DNA of 64,000 bases, from NCBI GenBank assembly GCA_016839745.1, contig JAEOTS010000157.1:1-64000 (forward strand). Direction: 5' to 3'. A program made the position numbers and the translations under genes. This document shows positions 2,036 through 26,748 of the stretch, piece after piece. Source of the stretch: Promethearchaeota archaeon (GTDB taxonomy: Archaea > Asgardarchaeota > Lokiarchaeia > Sigyniarchaeales > SOKP01). The notes under the pieces were generated by a model. That model was not told the origin of the DNA. It saw only the letters and a list, made by a program, of their open reading frames with translations, and did no database searches. Every line of letters begins with the position of its first letter. Within the stretch, counting starts at the first letter, position 1.

Positions 2036-3238
2036 TTATTCTTTGTTTATATTCGTATTGTTAAATTCCTTTATTAAAATTGGAATAACTTCATTAAGGT
2101 CGCCTACGATTCCATAATGAGCAACATTAAAAATAGGGGCATCGGGATCTTTATTAATTGCAACGATAACATTGGAATTTTCCATACCTACAATATGTTG
2201 GATTGCCCCAGAAATACCGCATGCAATATAAAGTTTAGGAGAAACGGTTACACCTGTTTGACCGATTTGTCTATCTGGTTCAAGCCAATTTAACTCAACG
2301 GTTATTCTTGACCCTCCCAATTCTGCGCCTAATACATTTGCTAATTCTTCTATAAGTTTAAAGTTATCTTTAGAACCTACTCCTCGTCCCCCTGCTACTA
2401 TGATTTTTGCGTCTTCGAGGTTTACTGTAGTTCTACTCGTATTTATTACTTTTACAATCTTTGAAACGGAATCTTTTTCTTCAAACGAGTAATCAATTTT
2501 TCTGATAGATGCTTTTTTTTCCCCTTTCTTAGGTGCTTTAAAAATCCCAGGTCTTACTGTAGCCATTTGTGGTCTACTAGAAGGAGTTCTAATCGTAGCC
2601 ATGATATTACCTCCGAAAGTAGGACGGGTTTGAAGAAGATTTTTCGTCTCGAGATTAATGTTTAACCCCGTACAGTCTGCCGTTAAACCCGCATTAAGTC
2701 TTTTAGCTACTCTTGGTGCAAAATCTCTTCCTGTAGGAGTAGCTCCAATTAATATTATCTCCGGTTTATTTTCAATTATTAACTCTGAAATTACCTTTAC
2801 GTATAAATCTGAATAATAATCTTTCAATATAGGCGAGCGCACGTAGATTATCTCATCCATCCCATATTGACTAAAATCTTCCAATTTTTCGTCGAAACTA
2901 TTTCCTAATATTATAAATGTTAAATTAACGCCTAATGCATCTGCTAATTCTCGTCCTTTTCCTAATAACTGGAACGCTACACTATGGATCCTTTTTTTGT
3001 AATGTTCAGCAATAACCCAAACGCCTTTGAACTGAGATAGATCTATTTTCTCAACTGTGTCTTCATCGCGTTCTAGCGATATTGCTTCTACAGGACAAGC
3101 TTCAACACATGCTCCGCATAGATTACAGTTTGGTAACAATTTCGCTTTTTCGTTTTTTAATTCAATGGCTCCAAAGGGACAACTGTCTACACAGTTTCCA
3201 CACCCAGTACATAGCTCATCGTCAATGATAATACTCAA
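2036..3238 (-). CDS. etfA: Electron transfer flavoprotein alpha subunit with N-terminal 2x[4Fe-4S] ferredoxin domain
   Basis: CTGCGNCVDSCP and CNLCGACVEACP; GLTADCT, RPTFGGN, QIGQTG, GISGAIQH, AINKD motifs. Confidence 0.95.
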   Translation of the reverse strand: MSIIIDDELCTGCGNCVDSCPFGAIELKNEKAKLLPNCNLCGACVEACPVEAISLERDEDTVEKIDLSQFKGVWVIAEHYKKRIHSVAFQLLGKGRELADALGVNLTFIILGNSFDEKLEDFSQYGMDEIIYVRSPILKDYYSDLYVKVISELIIENKPEIILIGATPTGRDFAPRVAKRLNAGLTADCTGLNINLETKNLLQTRPTFGGNIMATIRTPSSRPQMATVRPGIFKAPKKGEKKASIRKIDYSFEEKDSVSKIVKVINTSRTTVNLEDAKIIVAGGRGVGSKDNFKLIEELANVLGAELGGSRITVELNWLEPDRQIGQTGVTVSPKLYIACGISGAIQHIVGMENSNVIVAINKDPDAPIFNVAHYGIVGDLNEVIPILIKEFNNTNINKE

Positions 3239-7252: not shown

Positions 7253-8068
7253 ATGATAAAAAGCAGTCAACACTTCAAAATTTCAAAACAAAAAGACTAT
7301 CTTTATGTTATTAATGAAAATATCTCTCTTATCAATTCTGTTTATACTAATGATCCACTAAACTTGTATTTAATTTTAGGCACACACACAGCTCTTCTAC
7401 TTGATACTGGATGCGGTCTTTTCCCGTTAAAACCAATTGTCGATGAGTTGAAAGGATCAAGAAAACTGCTTGTCTTCAATACTCATTACCATTGGGATCA
7501 TCCTTTGGGTAATTTAGATTTCGGAGAGGTTTATATTCATGAAAATGAAGTTGATCTTGTCTCGAAACCTTATGATGTTTCCTATTTTAAAGATTCTCCT
7601 AATGAAATTGTAAGGGTATACGCTGAGCAAAATTATTTGATTCCCCCTGCGGAAGTAATTAAACCTTTAAAAGATGGAGAAATTTTTGACTTAGGTGAAA
7701 TAGTGATTAAAGTTTTACATTGTCCCGGACATTCTCCTGGCTCTATTTGCTTATTATCATCCAAAGGAGAACTTTTTACTGGCGATGTAGCCTATTATGG
7801 GGATCAGTTTCTACCAAAAAGAGAGGAATTTCATATTGTTCTCAAAAGTCTTTCTAAATTAATTAATATATGTAAACAGAATGAAAAGGTTGAACTTTAT
7901 CCGTCACATAGAAATTTTCCATGTAATATTTCACTCTTAATTGATCTATACAAAGGAATTAAGAACATTGAAAATTTATGGGAAATTAGAGAGGCATTTG
8001 ATTTCTTCCAAGCTTGGCAGATTGATGATCCCAGCGGAAAGTTTCGATACTTTATTTCAAGAAATTAA
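7253..8068 (+). CDS. MBL-fold metallo-hydrolase
   Basis: THYHWDH, PGHSPGS, FTGD. Confidence 0.9.
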   Translation: MIKSSQHFKISKQKDYLYVINENISLINSVYTNDPLNLYLILGTHTALLLDTGCGLFPLKPIVDELKGSRKLLVFNTHYHWDHPLGNLDFGEVYIHENEVDLVSKPYDVSYFKDSPNEIVRVYAEQNYLIPPAEVIKPLKDGEIFDLGEIVIKVLHCPGHSPGSICLLSSKGELFTGDVAYYGDQFLPKREEFHIVLKSLSKLINICKQNEKVELYPSHRNFPCNISLLIDLYKGIKNIENLWEIREAFDFFQAWQIDDPSGKFRYFISRN

Positions 8069-9234: not shown

Positions 9235-9765
9235 ATGAATTTAACTTGTACTGGCTGTGGAAATGAAATTGAAACGTTACCTATACAATGTGCACATAGT
9301 CTTAGCAAAAATACCGAAACCAATCAGATGGAGTGCTATATGGAAAATTGCGGAGTTATCTCGATTAATGAATTTATATGTGAGAATTGTTGTACCAAAA
9401 GGAATATCATGAAACTAAACAAAACTTTCGAGCGATTATCCTCAGAAAACGAAGAATTCAAGGAAGAGCTAGCATTTTTCGATAAAAATATCATCCAAAT
9501 AAATACTCCTGACTCTGATTTTAAATTCTGGGTCGAGTTTGGAAAAGGAGTTTATTTATGTGATAAAGGTGTAAAAGATGATGCTCCGATAACATTCATC
9601 ATCCCTAAGAAAAACATGAATCTAATTCTTGAGGGAAAACTGGAAGCTTTCGATGAGTTTTTCAGTGGAAATCTTAAAATTGAAGGGGATCTCCAATACG
9701 GAATAGTTTTTTTTGATATCGTAAAGCTAGCTTCAGAGATTATAAATGAAACAGGAGGGGCTTAA
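9235..9765 (+). CDS. Cys-rich (Zn-binding) domain fused to SCP2 sterol/lipid-binding domain
   Basis: N-terminal CTGC...C..H...C...C...CENC; C-terminal FFSGNLKIEGDL SCP2 signature. Confidence 0.75.
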   Translation: MNLTCTGCGNEIETLPIQCAHSLSKNTETNQMECYMENCGVISINEFICENCCTKRNIMKLNKTFERLSSENEEFKEELAFFDKNIIQINTPDSDFKFWVEFGKGVYLCDKGVKDDAPITFIIPKKNMNLILEGKLEAFDEFFSGNLKIEGDLQYGIVFFDIVKLASEIINETGGA

Positions 9766-9766
9766 T

Positions 9767-10516
9767 TTGAACAAAACAATTATATGGGGTCATCGAGGGA
9801 CTGGATTCACAGGTACACAAAATACATTCTCTTCTTTTAAGAATGCAATTGATATGGGGGTCGACGGAATAAAAACTGAGCCAAAATTATCAAAAGAAGG
9901 CGAAGTCGTTCTATCTTATTTCAATACGCTAAAAATAAACGGGGAAGACGTTCCAATCCAAGAGTTAACCATAGAAGAAATCAAAAAGTTTAAACTCGAA
10001 AATAACGAGTCAACCCCTACTCTACGCGAAGTTCTCGAAGCGTTTAAAAGCTCAGATATTAAATATAATTTTGATATCGCGAATCCGGAAGAAGGAATAC
10101 AAATCATCAAAACTGCTAAGGAGTATGGATTATTAGATCATGTAGAACTCGCTAAACCTTCCACGCGCCCAGATTCTCTCAGCGATTTTTTTACTGAAAT
10201 TAGAAATTTCGATAAAAATGTTATGTTGGTCAATTCTGTGTTTCTCAAATATTCAGTAATTGAAGATGAACATTTTGAACTCGAAGATATGAGAAAATTA
10301 AACATCAAAGGAATTAATGTTAACTATAATTACGCAGATTTCGAACTTTTTAAAAGAGTTAAAGACCACGGTTTCAAGTTTTGCGTATGGGGCGTTCTTT
10401 TTAAAAGATCGATGCAAAAATTGCTTACCATGAAATATAAGGGTGAATACATTGACGCAATAATGTCAAATCAACCAGATAGATTAGTAAAATTCCGTAA
10501 TGAATTTCAAAGCTAA
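9767..10516 (+). CDS. Glycerophosphodiester phosphodiesterase family protein
   Basis: IWGHRG, NTFSSFKNA, PTLREVL, IMSNQPD; TTG start after SD GGAGG. Confidence 0.85.
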   Translation: MNKTIIWGHRGTGFTGTQNTFSSFKNAIDMGVDGIKTEPKLSKEGEVVLSYFNTLKINGEDVPIQELTIEEIKKFKLENNESTPTLREVLEAFKSSDIKYNFDIANPEEGIQIIKTAKEYGLLDHVELAKPSTRPDSLSDFFTEIRNFDKNVMLVNSVFLKYSVIEDEHFELEDMRKLNIKGINVNYNYADFELFKRVKDHGFKFCVWGVLFKRSMQKLLTMKYKGEYIDAIMSNQPDRLVKFRNEFQS

Positions 10517-14596: not shown

Positions 14597-15619
14597 TTAG
14601 TACTTAATATTTTTGAGTTTTTTTTTAACTTTTTTTGCTTTTTTAGGTTGTTTTTTACCTATTTTTACACCCAAACTTAATTGACCTACCTTTTCCTCGG
14701 GGCCTTCCCAAAAAATGTATTTTTTTTCTAAAATTTTAATTTTTTTAATTTTAAATATCAAATATGCCATGAAATTAATAGCAAGAACATTTGATATTAA
14801 AAGAACAAGACTCCCAAATGATAAAAGTGTATTTCCATAAATTAAAGAGACTCCGATATTAACTGCAGGAGGCATCAAGGATACTGCAATAGCAATACCT
14901 ACTAAAGAAGATTGTAGTTTTCCTGTGATGGCAAATCCTACTGCTAAACCCGCACTGATAGATACGATCAAATCAAAAATCGTCGGAAAATTTCTAATCA
15001 TCATTTCATGTGTTATGGAAGGTGTACCAAAAATAAGGAATGCTAAGCTTGCGAGTAAAATGCCTATTAAAATTGCTATTAAAATACTAATTATTTGCCC
15101 AAATATTCCTTTATTGACTAATCGATAATTTTTGCTTATTATTCCATATGAAACACCTAGAATAGGACCCATTAATGGAGATATGATCATTGCCCCGATA
15201 ATAATCGCAGAAGAATTTAAAATTAGCCCTGATCCTGCGATAAGAGCAGCTATTATAATGAAGAAATAATAATCAAATTTTAAATCCATTCCCTCCTTTA
15301 TTGAGGATTTGATTTCTTCTATGGATACTCTGCTTGAAAGCTCTTCGGAAAGTTCTGTTTGTTCTTCTTTTTGTTCTGGAATCGTTGCTTGTAATTTTAG
15401 TATATCTATTATCCCAAATTCGATTCCTACTCCGATTTCATTCAGTGTTTCAAGTACTTTAGGAACCATATTCCTTGGGCAACGGATTATGACTAATGAA
15501 TTATTAGCACCCTCCAATAAAATAATACTTTTAATATTAAGCGTTTCATTTAGAGCTTTAATTAAGGATTCTTTATTTTTTACTGGTTCATTAGGAAAAC
15601 TTATCTGAATTTGACTCAT
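14597..15619 (-). CDS. DUF389 / TIGR00341-family membrane protein
   Basis: IIGAMIISPLMGPI, GIAIAVSLMPP. Confidence 0.85.
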   Translation of the reverse strand: MSQIQISFPNEPVKNKESLIKALNETLNIKSIILLEGANNSLVIIRCPRNMVPKVLETLNEIGVGIEFGIIDILKLQATIPEQKEEQTELSEELSSRVSIEEIKSSIKEGMDLKFDYYFFIIIAALIAGSGLILNSSAIIIGAMIISPLMGPILGVSYGIISKNYRLVNKGIFGQIISILIAILIGILLASLAFLIFGTPSITHEMMIRNFPTIFDLIVSISAGLAVGFAITGKLQSSLVGIAIAVSLMPPAVNIGVSLIYGNTLLSFGSLVLLISNVLAINFMAYLIFKIKKIKILEKKYIFWEGPEEKVGQLSLGVKIGKKQPKKAKKVKKKLKNIKY

Positions 15620-15737
15620 TTTTTAACACATGTTTTACTTTTTCGAAGGAGTTTCTCACAAGTTTATTTTAAATATTTTTCTAAAGAGTTAAATTAATTT
15701 ATACAAACCAATTTAAAACTTTTTTCTAGATTTTTTC

Positions 15738-15830
15738 TTCGTTATAGATCCTGAAATTCATGTAAAGAGGTTATCCACTCAACTAGATATTAAAGGGGAT
15801 TATTTAGACACTGTAGACTTTCACGGTAAA
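15738..15830 (+). pseudogene. Degenerate copy of the N-terminal part of the acyl-CoA mutase gene
   Basis: FVIDPEIHVKRLSTQLDIKGDYLDTVDFHGK vs FVTDSEIPIKQLYTPLDVKGDYLGSIGFPGE at 16811-16903; 17/31 identical, ungapped. Confidence 0.8.
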
Positions 15831-15953
15831 AATTTCATTAAGAATAGAGTACTTATTTAATCTCTAATTTCAACTAAGCACATTATTATGAAGTTTTACC
15901 ACCTTTTCTTCCAATTCGGCTTAGATATTTTTGTTTTTTTTGGTTTAACGGTT

Positions 15954-16289
15954 TTACATAAATAGTAAATCGTCGAAGACTACTATTTGATCTAACTGAG
16001 GGCGAAATATAAATTTATAATATTTTTTTTTCCAATAAAAACGCAGACTATTAAGGTACACTTTTAATTCTGAAATTTGCTCGGGTTTAATTTCTGTAAA
16101 TGAACTTATTATGGGTTCTTCCGTAGTAAATTCTATAATTCTTTTAAGTAAAGAACCATCATTTTTCAAAAGATAGATTGTTCCATTTAAATAAGCGTTA
16201 TTTTCCTCATTGTAAGTTAGCCCGAGATATTGAGCATATAAGTGAAAATACTGGCGAATCTTAGCTATTAGTTCATATATTTGAATTAT
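15954..16289 (-). CDS. Hypothetical protein (frame open to 16292; start uncertain)
   Basis: The 71-aa track ORF extends about 40 codons upstream without ATG/GTG/TTG (IIQIYELIAKIRQYFHLYAQYLGL...). Confidence 0.45.
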   Translation of the reverse strand: MIQIYELIAKIRQYFHLYAQYLGLTYNEENNAYLNGTIYLLKNDGSLLKRIIEFTTEEPIISSFTEIKPEQISELKVYLNSLRFYWKKKYYKFIFRPQLDQIVVFDDLLFM

Positions 16290-16405
16290 TACTCACACAT
16301 AATCAACATAAATCCATTGCTAAACAACTTCGAAATAAAACTGATAAAATCGATAATAGGATTGTATATATTTGGGAGGGTCTTAGCAATGAAATAATTT
16401 TAGAA

Positions 16406-16648
16406 TTGAATCGTAGGTTTCGAGACAGACAAATGCTATCTAAAGGTGAATTTCTTATGAAATATTACAAAAACTTTTATGCACATAAATATAAACCACA
16501 TTTTAAAAAAACTGAAGCTGATTGCCCCAATTTCTGGTTTTGGTACAAAAATTACTATTTGAGGGAAAGAAAATCTTTATTTTATAAACTCAACAGATTC
16601 TATAAAAAGAGATTTAAGAATGACAATTTTTTAATTAAAAATCTCTAA
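16406..16648 (+). CDS. Hypothetical basic/aromatic protein
   Basis: 80-aa ORF, no recognisable motif. Confidence 0.35.
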   Translation: MNRRFRDRQMLSKGEFLMKYYKNFYAHKYKPHFKKTEADCPNFWFWYKNYYLRERKSLFYKLNRFYKKRFKNDNFLIKNL

Positions 16649-16720
16649 ATTTATTAAATTTTTTTAGATGTAAACATTTCTATTACTTAAATTAAAAAAA
16701 ATATATAGTGATTTTAAAGT

Positions 16721-18425
16721 ATGTTCGATAAGAACTTTTTAAATAAAATTAGCCAAGAAAAAGCGAAATGGGAAGAAAAACATAAAAATGCGAAAGAACG
16801 AGATGTGAAGTTTGTAACCGATTCTGAAATCCCTATCAAGCAATTATATACTCCTTTAGATGTAAAGGGTGATTATTTGGGAAGCATAGGCTTTCCTGGA
16901 GAGCCTCCGTACACCCGGGGTGTATACCCAAATATGTATCGTGGTCGCCTATGGACGATGCGGTTATTCTCGGGACATGGAAAAAGTATTTCAATTTAGA
17001 AATATTTCTGGATCACCCGAAGAGACCAATTTGCGATGGAAATACCTATACGAAAACGGCGAAACCGGGTTTAGTGCGGCTGTAGATGCGTTAACATTTA
17101 ATGGGATTGACCCAACAAATCCAGATGGCGCACCTGAAGTTGGAACATCCGGTGTTCCTCTCTATTGCATTGATAGTCTTTTTGCACTAACAGAAGACAT
17201 TCCTATAGATAAAATTAGCGTAGCATTGGTCGTAGAGCCTTTTACAAGCGCTCCTGTATGTGCTATGTATTTCAACATGGCCCAAATGCGTGGATACGAT
17301 ATAAAAAATCTAATGGGAACAACACAAAACGATATATTAACGATGACCGTCGGTTATATCCCTTACAAGAACAGTCCACCAAATCATTTATTACGAGTAG
17401 CGTGCGATTTTATTGAATGGACAGTGGCTCAAAAGAATGTTCCGCTTTGGCATCCTATTAACTTTACTGGATATAACTATAGAGAGGGTGGCATAGATGC
17501 AATTCAAGAGCTTGGATTTGTTTTTGCTAGCGCTTGTTCTCATATTGACAACTTAGTCGAAAGAGGATGGAAGGCTGACGATTTTGTTGGAAGGTTAGCT
17601 TTTCATTTGGCTGCTCATAAGGATTTCTTCGAAGAAGTAGCAAAGTACCGAGCAGCTCGAAGGATTTGGTATAAACTCATGAAGGATAAATACGAAGTGA
17701 AAAATCCCAAAAATCTTGGTTTTAGATTCCATGTCCAAACTGCGGGAAGCTCTTTAACCGCACAATTACCAATGATTAATATCGTACGCACTGCGATACA
17801 AGGACTAGAAGCTAATTTAGGGGGATGCCAATCTCTTCATACAAATTCGTACGACGAGGCGATCTGTCTACCATCTGAGCAAGCAGCCTTGGTTGCCTTA
17901 AGGACCCAACAAGTGATCGCAGATGAAACGAGAATCACTAATACTATAGATCCTTTAGCAGGAAGTTATTATGTTGAGTGGTTGACCGATGAAGTTGAAG
18001 AAAGAGTTTGGAATTACATGGATAAAATTCAAAAAGTAGGTTCCATAGATAAAGCATTATCGACAGGTTGGCTCTATAAAGAGATGAGAGACGCGTTCCA
18101 TAAAAGAAGGACTCGCATAGAAAAGGGAGAAGAAATCATGCTCGGCATCAATAAATACAAGGTCCCTTACGATACAGTTACCGATGTTTTCAGGACATCG
18201 CAAGAAGCTATAGATATTGAAGTGAATAGGATCAAAAAGTTAAAAGAAAGAAGAGATAATGCAAAACTGGAGAAAATTTTGGACAAGCTAAGGGAAGTAT
18301 GTGAGAAAGAGGAGAATGTTATGCCCATTATTATGGAAGCTACAAGAGAAGGAGCAACTGTAGGAGAAATATGTGATATTTATAGAGAGATATGGGGCAT
18401 TTGGGAACCACCCTTAGCCATTTAA
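16721..18425 (+). CDS. B12-dependent acyl-CoA mutase large (substrate-binding) subunit, interrupted by a 31-nt insert
   Basis: GFPGEPPYTRGVYPNMYRGRLWTMR in one frame; PEETN, QNDIL, FFEEVAKYRAARR, FHVQTAG, QSLHTNSYDEA, DPLAGSYYVE in the +1 frame. Removing 31 nt gives a 557-aa protein. Confidence 0.92.
16983..17013 (+). other. Candidate 31-nt archaeal (BHB/BHL-type) intron
   Basis: 9-bp hairpin 16984-16992/16999-17007, AAA bulge, short central helix, outer stem TCGGG/CCCGA; removal restores SGHG-TPEETN. Confidence 0.6.
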
Positions 18426-18439
18426 GTGAGGTGTTAAAT

Positions 18440-18838
18440 CTGAGCGATAGAAAAATAAGAGTGTTAATGTCAAAACCCGGAATCGACGGTCATTGGAGAG
18501 GTGGTATTGTAGTATCCAGAGCTTTAAGAGATGCTGGAATGGAACTCATTTTTGGAGGATTCCAAAATGTTAATCAAATCGTTGAGGCAGCAATTCAAGA
18601 GGATGTAGATGTACTTGGCTTATCAATACACAGTGGAGCTCACTTCGCATACACTAAACAAATAATCGATTTATTAAAAGAAAGAGGCGTGTTTGATAAC
18701 ATATTAATTTTAGTTGGAGGAGTAATCCCAGCAGTAGACTTTCCAAAACTAAAAGAAATTGGCGTAGCAAATGTGTATGGTCCTGGTTCAATGACTAACG
18801 ACATAGCTGAATTTATTAAAGCACATGTCAAAAAATAA
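18440..18838 (+). CDS. Acyl-CoA mutase small subunit (cobalamin-binding domain)
   Basis: KIRVLMSKPGIDGHWRG (DxHxxG), GLSIHSGAH, VGGVIP; probable CTG start after SD GAGGTG. Confidence 0.92.
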   Translation: MSDRKIRVLMSKPGIDGHWRGGIVVSRALRDAGMELIFGGFQNVNQIVEAAIQEDVDVLGLSIHSGAHFAYTKQIIDLLKERGVFDNILILVGGVIPAVDFPKLKEIGVANVYGPGSMTNDIAEFIKAHVKK

Positions 18839-25770: not shown

Positions 25771-26748
25771 TTGACAAATGATAAAACTATTGAGTCGCTC
25801 GTTGATAGGTTTAAGAAGAAAGATAAAATTGCTTTAGCAAGATTAATTACCATTGTTGAAAATGAACCTGAGAATGCGTATAAGATTTTTAAGCATTTTG
25901 AAGATATAAACAACGATTCTTATATCATTGGATTGACTGGCTCTCCGGGAGTTGGCAAAAGTACTTTAACAGGAGCTATTTCTCAAAAAATATTAGATGA
26001 AGGAAAATCTGTAGGGATTATCTCTGTAGATCCAACGAGTCCTTTTAGCGGAGGAGCATTTTTAGGAGATAGAGTCCGCATGACTAATATCTCATTGCAT
26101 CCTAATGTGTTTATGCGTAGCCTTGCGTCAAGAGGGTATAAGGGAGGAATATCAAGAGCGGTATTTGACATTAGTATGTTGTACGAAGCTTTCGGTATGG
26201 ATATAATCATTATTGAAACGGTTGGAGTTGGACAAGCTGAATTTGACATCTACAATTTAGCATACACAGTTGTAGTTATCTTAGTTCCTGGTTACGGCGA
26301 TGTTATTCAGATGCAAAAAGCGGGGATTATCGAGATTGGAGATATCTACGATGTAAACAAAAAAGATTTAGGAGGAGAAGATATCGCTGTGCAAATTGAA
26401 ATGATGTTAGACGATACAACATTTCAAAGCGGTTATAGACCCCCAGTTGTATTAACTGACGCTATAAACGGTGAAGGCATCGACGAACTGCTCCAATATA
26501 TTTGGGATCACAAAGAACATCTTGAGTTATCCGAGCTTCTTAATGAAAAGAAAGAAAATAGATTCAATTATAAAATTACTGAATTAATTTATTCTAAAGT
26601 AGAGCAAATTGTTAAAAAAAGCTTCTTTAACCAAGGAAAGATCACAGAACTAGTTCAGCATGCAATGGATAATGGAAAGTTTAAAATTTATGAGATAATT
26701 CACAACAAGTTTGAAGTTATGAATTTAGAGATAAAAGACAAAGAATAA
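25771..26748 (+). CDS. meaB: MeaB/ArgK GTPase chaperone of B12 mutases
   Basis: GLTGSPGVGKST, VDPTSPFSGGAFLGDRVRM, ETVGVGQ, VNKKD. Confidence 0.93.
   Translation: MTNDKTIESLVDRFKKKDKIALARLITIVENEPENAYKIFKHFEDINNDSYIIGLTGSPGVGKSTLTGAISQKILDEGKSVGIISVDPTSPFSGGAFLGDRVRMTNISLHPNVFMRSLASRGYKGGISRAVFDISMLYEAFGMDIIIIETVGVGQAEFDIYNLAYTVVVILVPGYGDVIQMQKAGIIEIGDIYDVNKKDLGGEDIAVQIEMMLDDTTFQSGYRPPVVLTDAINGEGIDELLQYIWDHKEHLELSELLNEKKENRFNYKITELIYSKVEQIVKKSFFNQGKITELVQHAMDNGKFKIYEIIHNKFEVMNLEIKDKE

Follow-up and report, generated by a model that had tools for sequence, protein, structure and literature searches.

The locus studied here raises the question of how a metabolic gene that is broken into two reading frames could still yield its protein. 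The window, that is, the whole stretch of 64,000 nucleotides (nt) of contig JAEOTS010000157.1 from a Promethearchaeota archaeon, carries a gene for the large subunit of an acyl-CoA mutase (PF01642/TIGR00641), which is split in two frames at window positions 16982/17014. The interruption is an insert of 31 nt (16983-17013, plus strand) inside the conserved GHG|TPEETN loop, with an in-frame TAG at 16997-99. A sequence-only reading of this DNA had proposed a bulge-helix-bulge (BHB) intron in an Asgard mRNA, and this interpretation is supported by the borders that orthologues impose on the insert, by its recurrence in other alleles and by a geometry shared with unrelated inserts. We conclude from these comparisons that the 31 nt are very probably an archaeal BHB intron in the mutase coding region, excised at the RNA level by EndA and RtcB.

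The first open reading frame (ORF), at 16721-16999, ends in ...WTMRLFSGHG-KSISI-stop (...CTA TGG ACG ATG CGG TTA TTC TCG GGA CAT GGA AAA AGT ATT TCA ATT TAG). The second frame picks up at ...SPEETNLRWKYL (GGA TCA CCC GAA GAG ACC AAT) and continues to 18425, in an ORF (16920-18425) that is open in this frame through the entire insert. Removing 16983-17013 gives GGA ACA CCC GAA and a spliced gene of 262 + 1409 nt, or 557 codons, in which exon 1 (16721-16982, plus strand) comprises 87 codons and the first base of a Thr codon, and exon 2 (17014-18425, plus strand) comprises bases 2-3 of this codon, 469 more codons and the stop. The two pieces match adjoining parts of the family profiles, namely positions 2-54 and 58-512 of the 512 positions of PF01642 and positions 1-59 and 62-523 of TIGR00641, the latter with a score of 459 bits against a cut-off of 304. 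The gene without its insert thus gives a full-length profile match and is accompanied by genes for a B12 subunit and for MeaB, as expected for the large (substrate-binding) subunit of an acyl-CoA mutase; with the equivalog model NF006944, it scores far below the cut-off. When we re-read the letters, all the statements that the sequence-only reading had made about the sequence proved correct, and so did its guess of an Asgard host, the genome being a Promethearchaeota/Loki-type metagenome-assembled genome (MAG).

The DNA itself appears to be genuine. Logan contigs of four metagenome runs, corresponding to four samples of one marine-sediment study of which one lacks the flag that marks possible sources of this DNA, showed 0 differences and no indels over 16515-17600, and a single Logan contig reaches across 15500-17600. 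Since the contigs of the four runs are identical, the run of five As (A5) at the junction is no miscount and the join of exon 1, insert and exon 2 is no assembly chimera; the per-run contigs show five As and not four, which settles a doubt left by the earlier reading. That the interruption is an artefact of sequencing or assembly, either a wrongly counted homopolymer or two strains joined into a chimera, could be suspected from the source, a 3.5-Mb MAG of 192 contigs with 5.8% contamination, and from the fact that the gene is a mosaic of two lineages (see below). But the 31-nt insert with its A5 run is also found in independent assemblies of other studies, and together with the agreement of the four runs this leaves the artefact with next to no probability. 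One low-depth contig of run X1 (depth 5) joins 15805 to 16952 and skips 1146 nt, its shorter side being 22 nt; we judged it a probable partial match whose probable source is the mutase gene of another organism, and it was left unexplained and not used.

The borders of the insert were examined with orthologues, gathered as about 100 loci from whole genomes and representing 83 distinct alleles. Hereafter, G000 is the window's own genome and C-numbers are its contigs, other G-numbers are genomes of relatives, and L-numbers are compared loci. All the distinct uninterrupted orthologues (77/77) read GHG|TPEETN, with the Thr encoded by ACN. Cutting out 16983-17013 alone restores ACA (Thr), while cutting out 16982-17012 gives Ser, and the Thr of all uninterrupted orthologues therefore fixes the insert as 16983-17013. 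The cuts previously proposed from the sequence, after A16982 and U17013, are precisely the borders forced by this comparison, and the choice between Thr and Ser that had been left to orthologues comes out as Thr throughout.

The insert is not private to this strain either, as at least 11 further distinct alleles carry the same 31-nt insert. These homologues, which we call type A, are found in L073, L075 and L088 at the same position with 1-4 differences, in L137, L150, L162, L176, L205 and L220, which came from a metagenome pattern scan, and in L231-L235, which come from five genomes of a sister genus. Type B is an insert of 30 nt with unrelated sequence at the identical position, in frame and with TAA stops (L105, L158, L169, L208 and L218). 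Type C, of 32 nt, lies 8 nt downstream (TPE|...|ETN) in one genome, G003, where it occupies about 2911-2942 of L018 on the minus strand (about 1469-1500 of L086, the same record). A search of 154 genomes of the order found type A in 5 of 54 from this sister genus and in G000 alone among the 42 of its own genus. In a tree of exon 2, alleles with types A and B are dispersed between intronless ones. An apparent contig break at the site in G002 proved to be a plain overlap of two intronless contigs.

In this copy, the insert and its exon flanks can form a BHB motif in a relaxed version, as read from the sequence (plus strand throughout) and recovered in the minimum free energy (MFE) fold given by ViennaRNA. 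The outer exon-exon helix of 5 bp pairs UCGGG (16970-16974) with CCCGA (17016-17020). The central helix pairs the exon strand AUGG (16977-16980) with the intron strand CUGG (17008-17011) through G16980-C17008, G16979.U17009 and U16978.G17010, that is, three pairs, followed by an A16977xG17011 mismatch. The 5' bulge AA|A (16981-16983) has its predicted cut after A16982 and the 3' bulge AU|C (17012-17014) after U17013, and the 3' bulge forms with A17015, opposite A16975-C16976, a 4x2 internal loop, hence the relaxed character of the motif. The intron itself folds in a hairpin (16984-17007) of 9 bp, one of them G.U, with the arms AAGUAUUUC (16984-92) and GAAAUAUUU (16999-17007) and a 6-nt loop (16993-98). 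Compared with shuffled sequences, this copy gave z-scores of -2.6 over 71 nt and -1.8 over 57 nt. Its fold alone is thus only modestly better than that of shuffles, and the weight comes from the comparison with relatives.

This comparison reveals one geometry. For each of types A, B and C, a single nt separates the 5' border from the inner hairpin that follows, and 6 nt separate the end of this hairpin from the 3' border; of these 6 nt, four pair with exon positions -6 to -3 and two belong to the bulge. The BHB rule established for cbf5 places each cut after the second base of a 3-nt bulge, across a 4-bp helix (PMC2738675), and cuts placed by this rule coincide with the orthologue borders for types A, B and C and also for the introns of uppS and of a hydrolase gene described below. 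The central helix is AUGG/CUGG in this copy (3 pairs, two of them G.U), AUGG/CUGU in L073 and AUGG/CUAU in L088 (4 pairs each), and it is formed of 4 pairs, all Watson-Crick, in L158 (AUGG/CCAU) and in G003 (CCUG/CAGG). Type C, with this perfect helix, is almost devoid of an outer helix and resembles a bulge-helix-loop. Across type A, the intron strand of the helix is CUGG, CUGU or CUAU, and one allele (L220, CUGA) forms only 3 pairs. In the hairpin, L088, L176 and L233-L235 have G-C instead of the G.U pair, through a change of U to C. The few changes seen within type A strengthen the pairing in several alleles. MFE folds give the motif in L088 (z -5.6), L105 (z -3.8) and L158 (z -3.7). The three types have a common structure without sequence similarity; a MAFFT alignment of types A and B followed sequence and not structure. 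By a rough estimate made by reasoning, in which the hairpin has about 8 possible offsets and random 4-mers form at least 3 pairs in about 15% of cases, it is very unlikely that the three inserts and those of uppS and the hydrolase gene all adopt the 1/6 offset with at least 3 pairs by accident.

Three further interrupted genes of G000 were set against five genomes of the same genus. The uppS gene carries a 30-nt insert within the catalytic DG|NRRW (L116; C51, about 9764-9817 in plus-strand coordinates, minus strand), which G015 and G008 share and G017, G018 and G003 lack. The rpl11 gene carries a frameshifting insert of 29 nt at GPTGI|NIKD (L118; C98, about 2739-3038, minus strand), with a corresponding insert of 28 nt in G017 and G008 and none in G015, G018 and G003; its GCAU/AUGC central helix is perfect, and its 5' bulge is larger by one unpaired base. 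In the hydrolase gene, an in-frame insert of 33 nt lies inside HPHPxYGG with a stop codon in the hairpin loop (L117; C44, about 7414-7494, minus strand), and it is found at the same site in five species (G000, G015, G017, G008 and G003), its hairpin showing compensatory changes. For all three genes, the sequences of the hairpin arms vary among species and their complementarity is kept. Since rpl11 is an essential gene, living cells must have a way to excise or bypass such inserts.

Enzymes that could carry out this removal are encoded in G000, namely two paralogues of EndA (PF01974) and RtcB (C181). The EndA genes are L112 (C86, 1453-2055, minus strand) and L113 (C93, 1207-1815, plus strand), and the pair of proteins measures 200 and 202 amino acids (aa). 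Read by eye, the C86 protein has retained the Tyr, His and Lys that a catalytic subunit should have; among solved structures, it is closest to 3p1z_B, which we take to be the catalytic chain of Aeropyrum pernix. The C93 protein, judged by eye from its unaligned sequence, apparently lacks the His. One EndA with the His and one apparently without it suggest a heteromeric (alpha-beta)2 splicing endonuclease, and Asgard EndA has been described as an (alpha-beta)2 enzyme, with an L1 loop giving broad specificity (PMC5829648).

We infer the following steps of cleavage, ligation and circle release. Once transcribed, the insert would fold together with the flanking exon sequence as a relaxed hBHBh' motif (UCGGG/CCCGA, (A)UGG/CUG(G), AA|A, AU|C and the 9-bp hairpin). 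A heteromeric endonuclease made of the two EndA paralogues would cut after A16982 and U17013, and RtcB would join the exons to give GGA-ACA-CCC, hence GHG-T-PEETN and a protein of 557 aa. The predicted spliced junction is CATGGAA|CACCCGAA and the predicted peptide is LFSGHGTPEETNLR. The intron of 31 nt would be released, probably as a small circle.

How the intron reached this gene can be approached from the different affinities of the two exons. Exon 2 shares 84-85% of its nt and 97% of its aa with the same-genus alleles of clade A (L008, L003, L036 and others), while exon 1 shares only 70-74% of its nt with them and is best matched by L067, L095 and L096 (80-83%). In the exon-2 tree, G000 falls inside clade A with a support of 98.9 in the Shimodaira-Hasegawa-like approximate likelihood ratio test (SH-aLRT), and its grouping with L067, L095 and L096 is rejected by the approximately unbiased (AU) test (p 1e-103). 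For exon 1, it is the clade A grouping that is rejected (AU p 0.0008) and the L067/L095/L096 grouping that is accepted (p 0.41), the groups of these tests having been named after the identity tables had been seen. About 0.9-1 kb upstream of the present exon 1, tblastn and blastn detect a decayed relic of the native exon 1 (15738-15830, plus strand; nt 91-183, aa about 31-61), which is closest to L008, L003 and L036, also the nearest relatives of exon 2. Between the relic and exon 1 lies DNA (15855-16289) that relatives carry upstream of their mutase gene (blastn, 71-75% to L090, L005, L092, L032, L074 and L061), with a stop-to-stop frame at 15954-16292 on the minus strand. The DNA between relic and exon 1 is single-copy in G000, and a search of it for a homing-endonuclease or other mobile gene returned two open frames without a convincing Pfam family. 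No relic was found upstream of other insert-bearing alleles, in roughly 1.2 kb for four alleles or in 218 nt for L073.

Judged by these sequence affinities, exon 2 is of native type, exon 1 is foreign and imported from another lineage, and the intron was probably imported together with exon 1. Through recombination, a foreign segment comprising the upstream DNA, exon 1 and probably the intron would have taken the place of the native 5' part, one of its ends lying close to the intron site; the native exon 1 would have decayed afterwards, and the intron-bearing gene would have stayed under selection. The occurrence of type A among the 154 genomes agrees with such an import. The exon flanks bear on the choice of the site. 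Among the 77 intronless alleles, 40 can form all five pairs of the outer helix, and the exact flank TCGGGACATGGA...CCCGA is present in 5/5 insert-bearing alleles of types A and B (a sample not selected by flank) versus 1/77 intronless ones, an enrichment explained either by selection on the motif or by short flanks having been transferred along with it. At this site, two or three unrelated introns are packed into 9 nt. It would be a hot spot because the codons for Ser-Gly (UCNGG) and Pro-Glu (CCNGA) are complementary, so that the outer helix is preformed in many intronless alleles. As a tentative proposal, in which our belief falls somewhat short of even, BHB micro-introns in Asgard protein genes could be a laterally spreading population and not static relics, with this site as a hot spot of gain and with entry here on a foreign 5' segment. 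The near-identity of type A introns in lineages whose exons differ at a dS of about 0.45, and their presence in 5 of 54 sister-genus genomes but in G000 alone within its own genus, are part of this proposal. If this were true in general, homologous recombination between lineages, and not a homing enzyme or reverse splicing, would be a main route of such intron spread, and the genes concerned would be protein genes of those archaea that stand closest to eukaryotes. The mosaic gene with its imported exon 1, the decayed native relic upstream and the hot-spot picture are what is new here.

A recombinant gene with a decaying duplicate of its exon 1 upstream could itself be dead or dying, its insert being the scar of a palindromic or mobile insertion (with TGGA, present at 16978-81 and 17009-12, as the target duplication) or a by-product of recombination, and the cell relying on the 41%-identical mutase paralogue encoded on C177 of the same genome; the BHB motif of this copy, the weakest of its family, would fit this explanation too. 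But both exons are intact, and exon 2 of G000 is changed at 21/930 of the clade-invariant sites (2.3%) versus 11/62 (18%) in the adjacent pseudogene fragment. More generally, exons 1 and 2 are intact in six insert-bearing whole-genome loci and exon 2 is stop-free in ten metagenome loci. Pairs of alleles that both contain the intron show low ratios of nonsynonymous to synonymous substitution rates (dN/dS), of 0.050 for L073/L075 (dS 0.47), 0.037 for L162/L205 (dS 0.45) and 0.039 for L158/L208 (dS 0.34), and the introns are identical within each of these pairs. Insert-bearing genes are therefore under strong purifying selection, and the argument against decay made in the sequence-only reading has been strengthened by the intact exons, the low dN/dS and the comparison with the relic. 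The TGGA repeat exists in this copy only and is not conserved in the homologous inserts, so the target duplication that had been considered as an alternative falls away. A miniature inverted-repeat transposable element (MITE) was rejected for this same reason and because G000 contains just one copy of the insert when up to 3 mismatches are allowed; a scan of the 154 genomes of the order found the insert at this gene site only, plus one chance-like match with 1 mismatch. We thus consider a dead gene quite unlikely.

Two other explanations keep the insert in the RNA. Translational bypassing is known from gene 60 of phage T4 and from mitochondrial 'byp' elements, and we know of no description of it in archaea; here, the peptidyl-tRNA-Gly would leave at GGA 16979-81 and land at GGA 17010-12, giving GHG-S-PEETN. 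This copy does present a GGA before the insert and a second one 31 nt on in the right register, with a hairpin within the gap and the TAG 15 nt past the take-off codon, but the GGA...GGA pair is found in this copy only. The type A inserts of relatives end in CUGUAU, CUAUAU or CUGAAA and offer GUA, AUA or GAA for landing, type B offers AUA, and in type C the sole matched pair, AGC...AGC, would add three residues inside the TPEETN loop. The Ser of the product also disagrees with the Thr of every uninterrupted orthologue. As matched take-off and landing codons are confined to this copy, a byp-type element was rejected and bypassing appears highly improbable. The A5 run at the junction (GGA-AAA-AG) could alternatively promote a +1 frameshift or transcriptional slippage, and the ORF at 16920-18425, which spans the insert in the open exon-2 frame, is in favour of this explanation. 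It would leave a 10-residue insertion, KVFQFRNISG, then Ser for Thr, and would give the peptide GHGKVFQFRNISGSPEETN with 10 additional aa in the substrate loop, but the length of this loop is invariant across orthologues. Type B inserts, being of 30 nt, in frame and with TAA stops, are rescued by no single shift, in type C a shift would have to occur within about one codon, and the inserts of rpl11, uppS and the hydrolase gene have no such slippery runs. The +1 slip that had been kept as an alternative was thus not borne out, and we give it very little credence.

Excision as a BHB intron therefore remains our preferred explanation, and several points have to be set against it. Its support comes from comparison, and among the runs listed as containing this DNA none was an RNA run. 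The copy in the window has the weakest motif of its family, with z-scores of only -1.8 to -2.6, a central helix of one G-C pair, two G.U pairs and one A.G mismatch, and a 3' site placed in a 4x2 loop and not in a clean bulge; with such a weak motif, this copy may be spliced inefficiently. Pairing changes within type A are very few, and the near-identity of type A introns at an exon dS of about 0.45 could be due to recent lateral spread and not to long-term function. The alleles from the metagenome scan were picked by fixed exon flanks and are uninformative on flank conservation. Finally, genome-wide screens of G000 that combined a hairpin, a 4-bp helix and an ORF fusion showed no excess of candidates over shifted geometries (907 versus 897-1019, 22 versus 26-35 and 400 versus 385-503 for the canonical and the shifted geometries, respectively). 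These screens are uninformative because the signal is drowned by hairpins at ordinary gene junctions; an initial version with stricter settings overlooked the mutase intron itself, and the rpl11 intron falls outside the strict 1/6 geometry.

A BHB intron in crenarchaeal cbf5 pre-mRNA was reportedly described by Watanabe in 2002. According to the papers searched, the BHB intron is known in coding regions of this one archaeal gene, cbf5 of Crenarchaeota (PMC2738675), to which a case in a 5' untranslated region (UTR) of Haloferax has been added (PMC7714728). Literature searches for mRNA BHB introns of Asgard archaea or Lokiarchaea found none: work on Asgard introns covers tRNA genes only (PMC11291895), and a preprint on them also covers tRNA genes, with no mention of mRNA in its searchable text (bioRxiv 10.64898/2026.10.13.758758). 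The cbf5 pre-mRNA of Desulfurococcales and Sulfolobales (Yokobori 2009, PMC2738675) resembles the mutase in having a short coding-region intron with a relaxed BHB whose cuts are the exon borders, a heteromeric (alpha-beta)2 endonuclease, predicted in the case of the mutase, and a patchy distribution among species, which for cbf5 was read as gain and loss. The mutase differs in its Asgard phylum, in encoding a metabolic B12 enzyme rather than an RNA-modification enzyme (a pseudouridine synthase), in the three different inserts within 9 nt and the lateral arrival with a foreign 5' exon, and in being one of several interrupted protein genes of its genome. Moreover, cbf5 splicing was shown experimentally, whereas the mutase intron is known from DNA comparison.

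In Haloferax volcanii, the HVO_1309 mRNA is likewise a substrate of the archaeal splicing endonuclease, with an excised circle that was seen and a cleavage confirmed in vitro, but its intron is in the 5' UTR, the protein is uninterrupted and the enzyme is euryarchaeal (PMC7714728). Non-canonical tRNA introns of Asgard archaea, as described in PMC11291895 and in the preprint (bioRxiv 10.64898/2026.10.13.758758), share with the mutase insert a size of about 30 nt, an inner hairpin, a 4-bp helix and bulges, the same presumed enzymes, and repeated gains where the exon sequence already permits the motif. In contrast to them, the host RNA of the mutase intron is an mRNA, and excision must also restore the reading frame. 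Splicing of HAC1/XBP1 mRNA in eukaryotes is carried out by the Ire1 endonuclease together with a tRNA ligase, Trl1 in yeast, or with RtcB in animals. It resembles the mutase case by its independence from the spliceosome, by a short coding-region intron that changes the frame and by ligation through RtcB in animals, but Ire1 is not a tRNA-splicing endonuclease, the stem-loops are not BHB motifs and the process is a regulated stress switch. The abstract of PMC8718801 refers to RtcB/XBP-1.

If the mutase, rpl11, uppS and hydrolase genes all need excision, the tRNA machinery would be splicing mRNAs as a matter of routine in a lineage near the origin of eukaryotes. Such genes are annotated as frameshifted or split ORFs (here of 92 aa and 501 aa), and calls of this kind distort the number of pseudogenes, the reconstructed metabolism and the estimated completeness of Asgard MAGs. 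The locus also illustrates intron gain, with a pre-adapted exon helix, several independent inserts at one spot and an arrival by recombination, still visible in the relic of the exon that was replaced.

The genes that accompany the large subunit are intact. The small B12-binding subunit (18392-18838, plus strand; PF02310, TIGR00640) has a start that overlaps the end of the large subunit, and the MeaB-type G-protein chaperone of the mutase is encoded at 25771-26748 on the plus strand (PF03308, E 3.6e-75). The sequence-only reading had named these two genes and cobO as intact neighbours; profile matches confirm the small subunit and meaB, and cobO was not identified. In the large subunit, the codons R-L-F at window 16955-16969 place a Phe where the RQY motif of methylmalonyl-CoA mutase has a Tyr. 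This Phe presumably aligns with Tyr89, the residue of the RQY motif that specifies the substrate in the methylmalonyl-CoA mutase of Propionibacterium. Judged by this motif and by the low NF006944 score, the substrate of the enzyme may be an acyl-CoA other than methylmalonyl-CoA.

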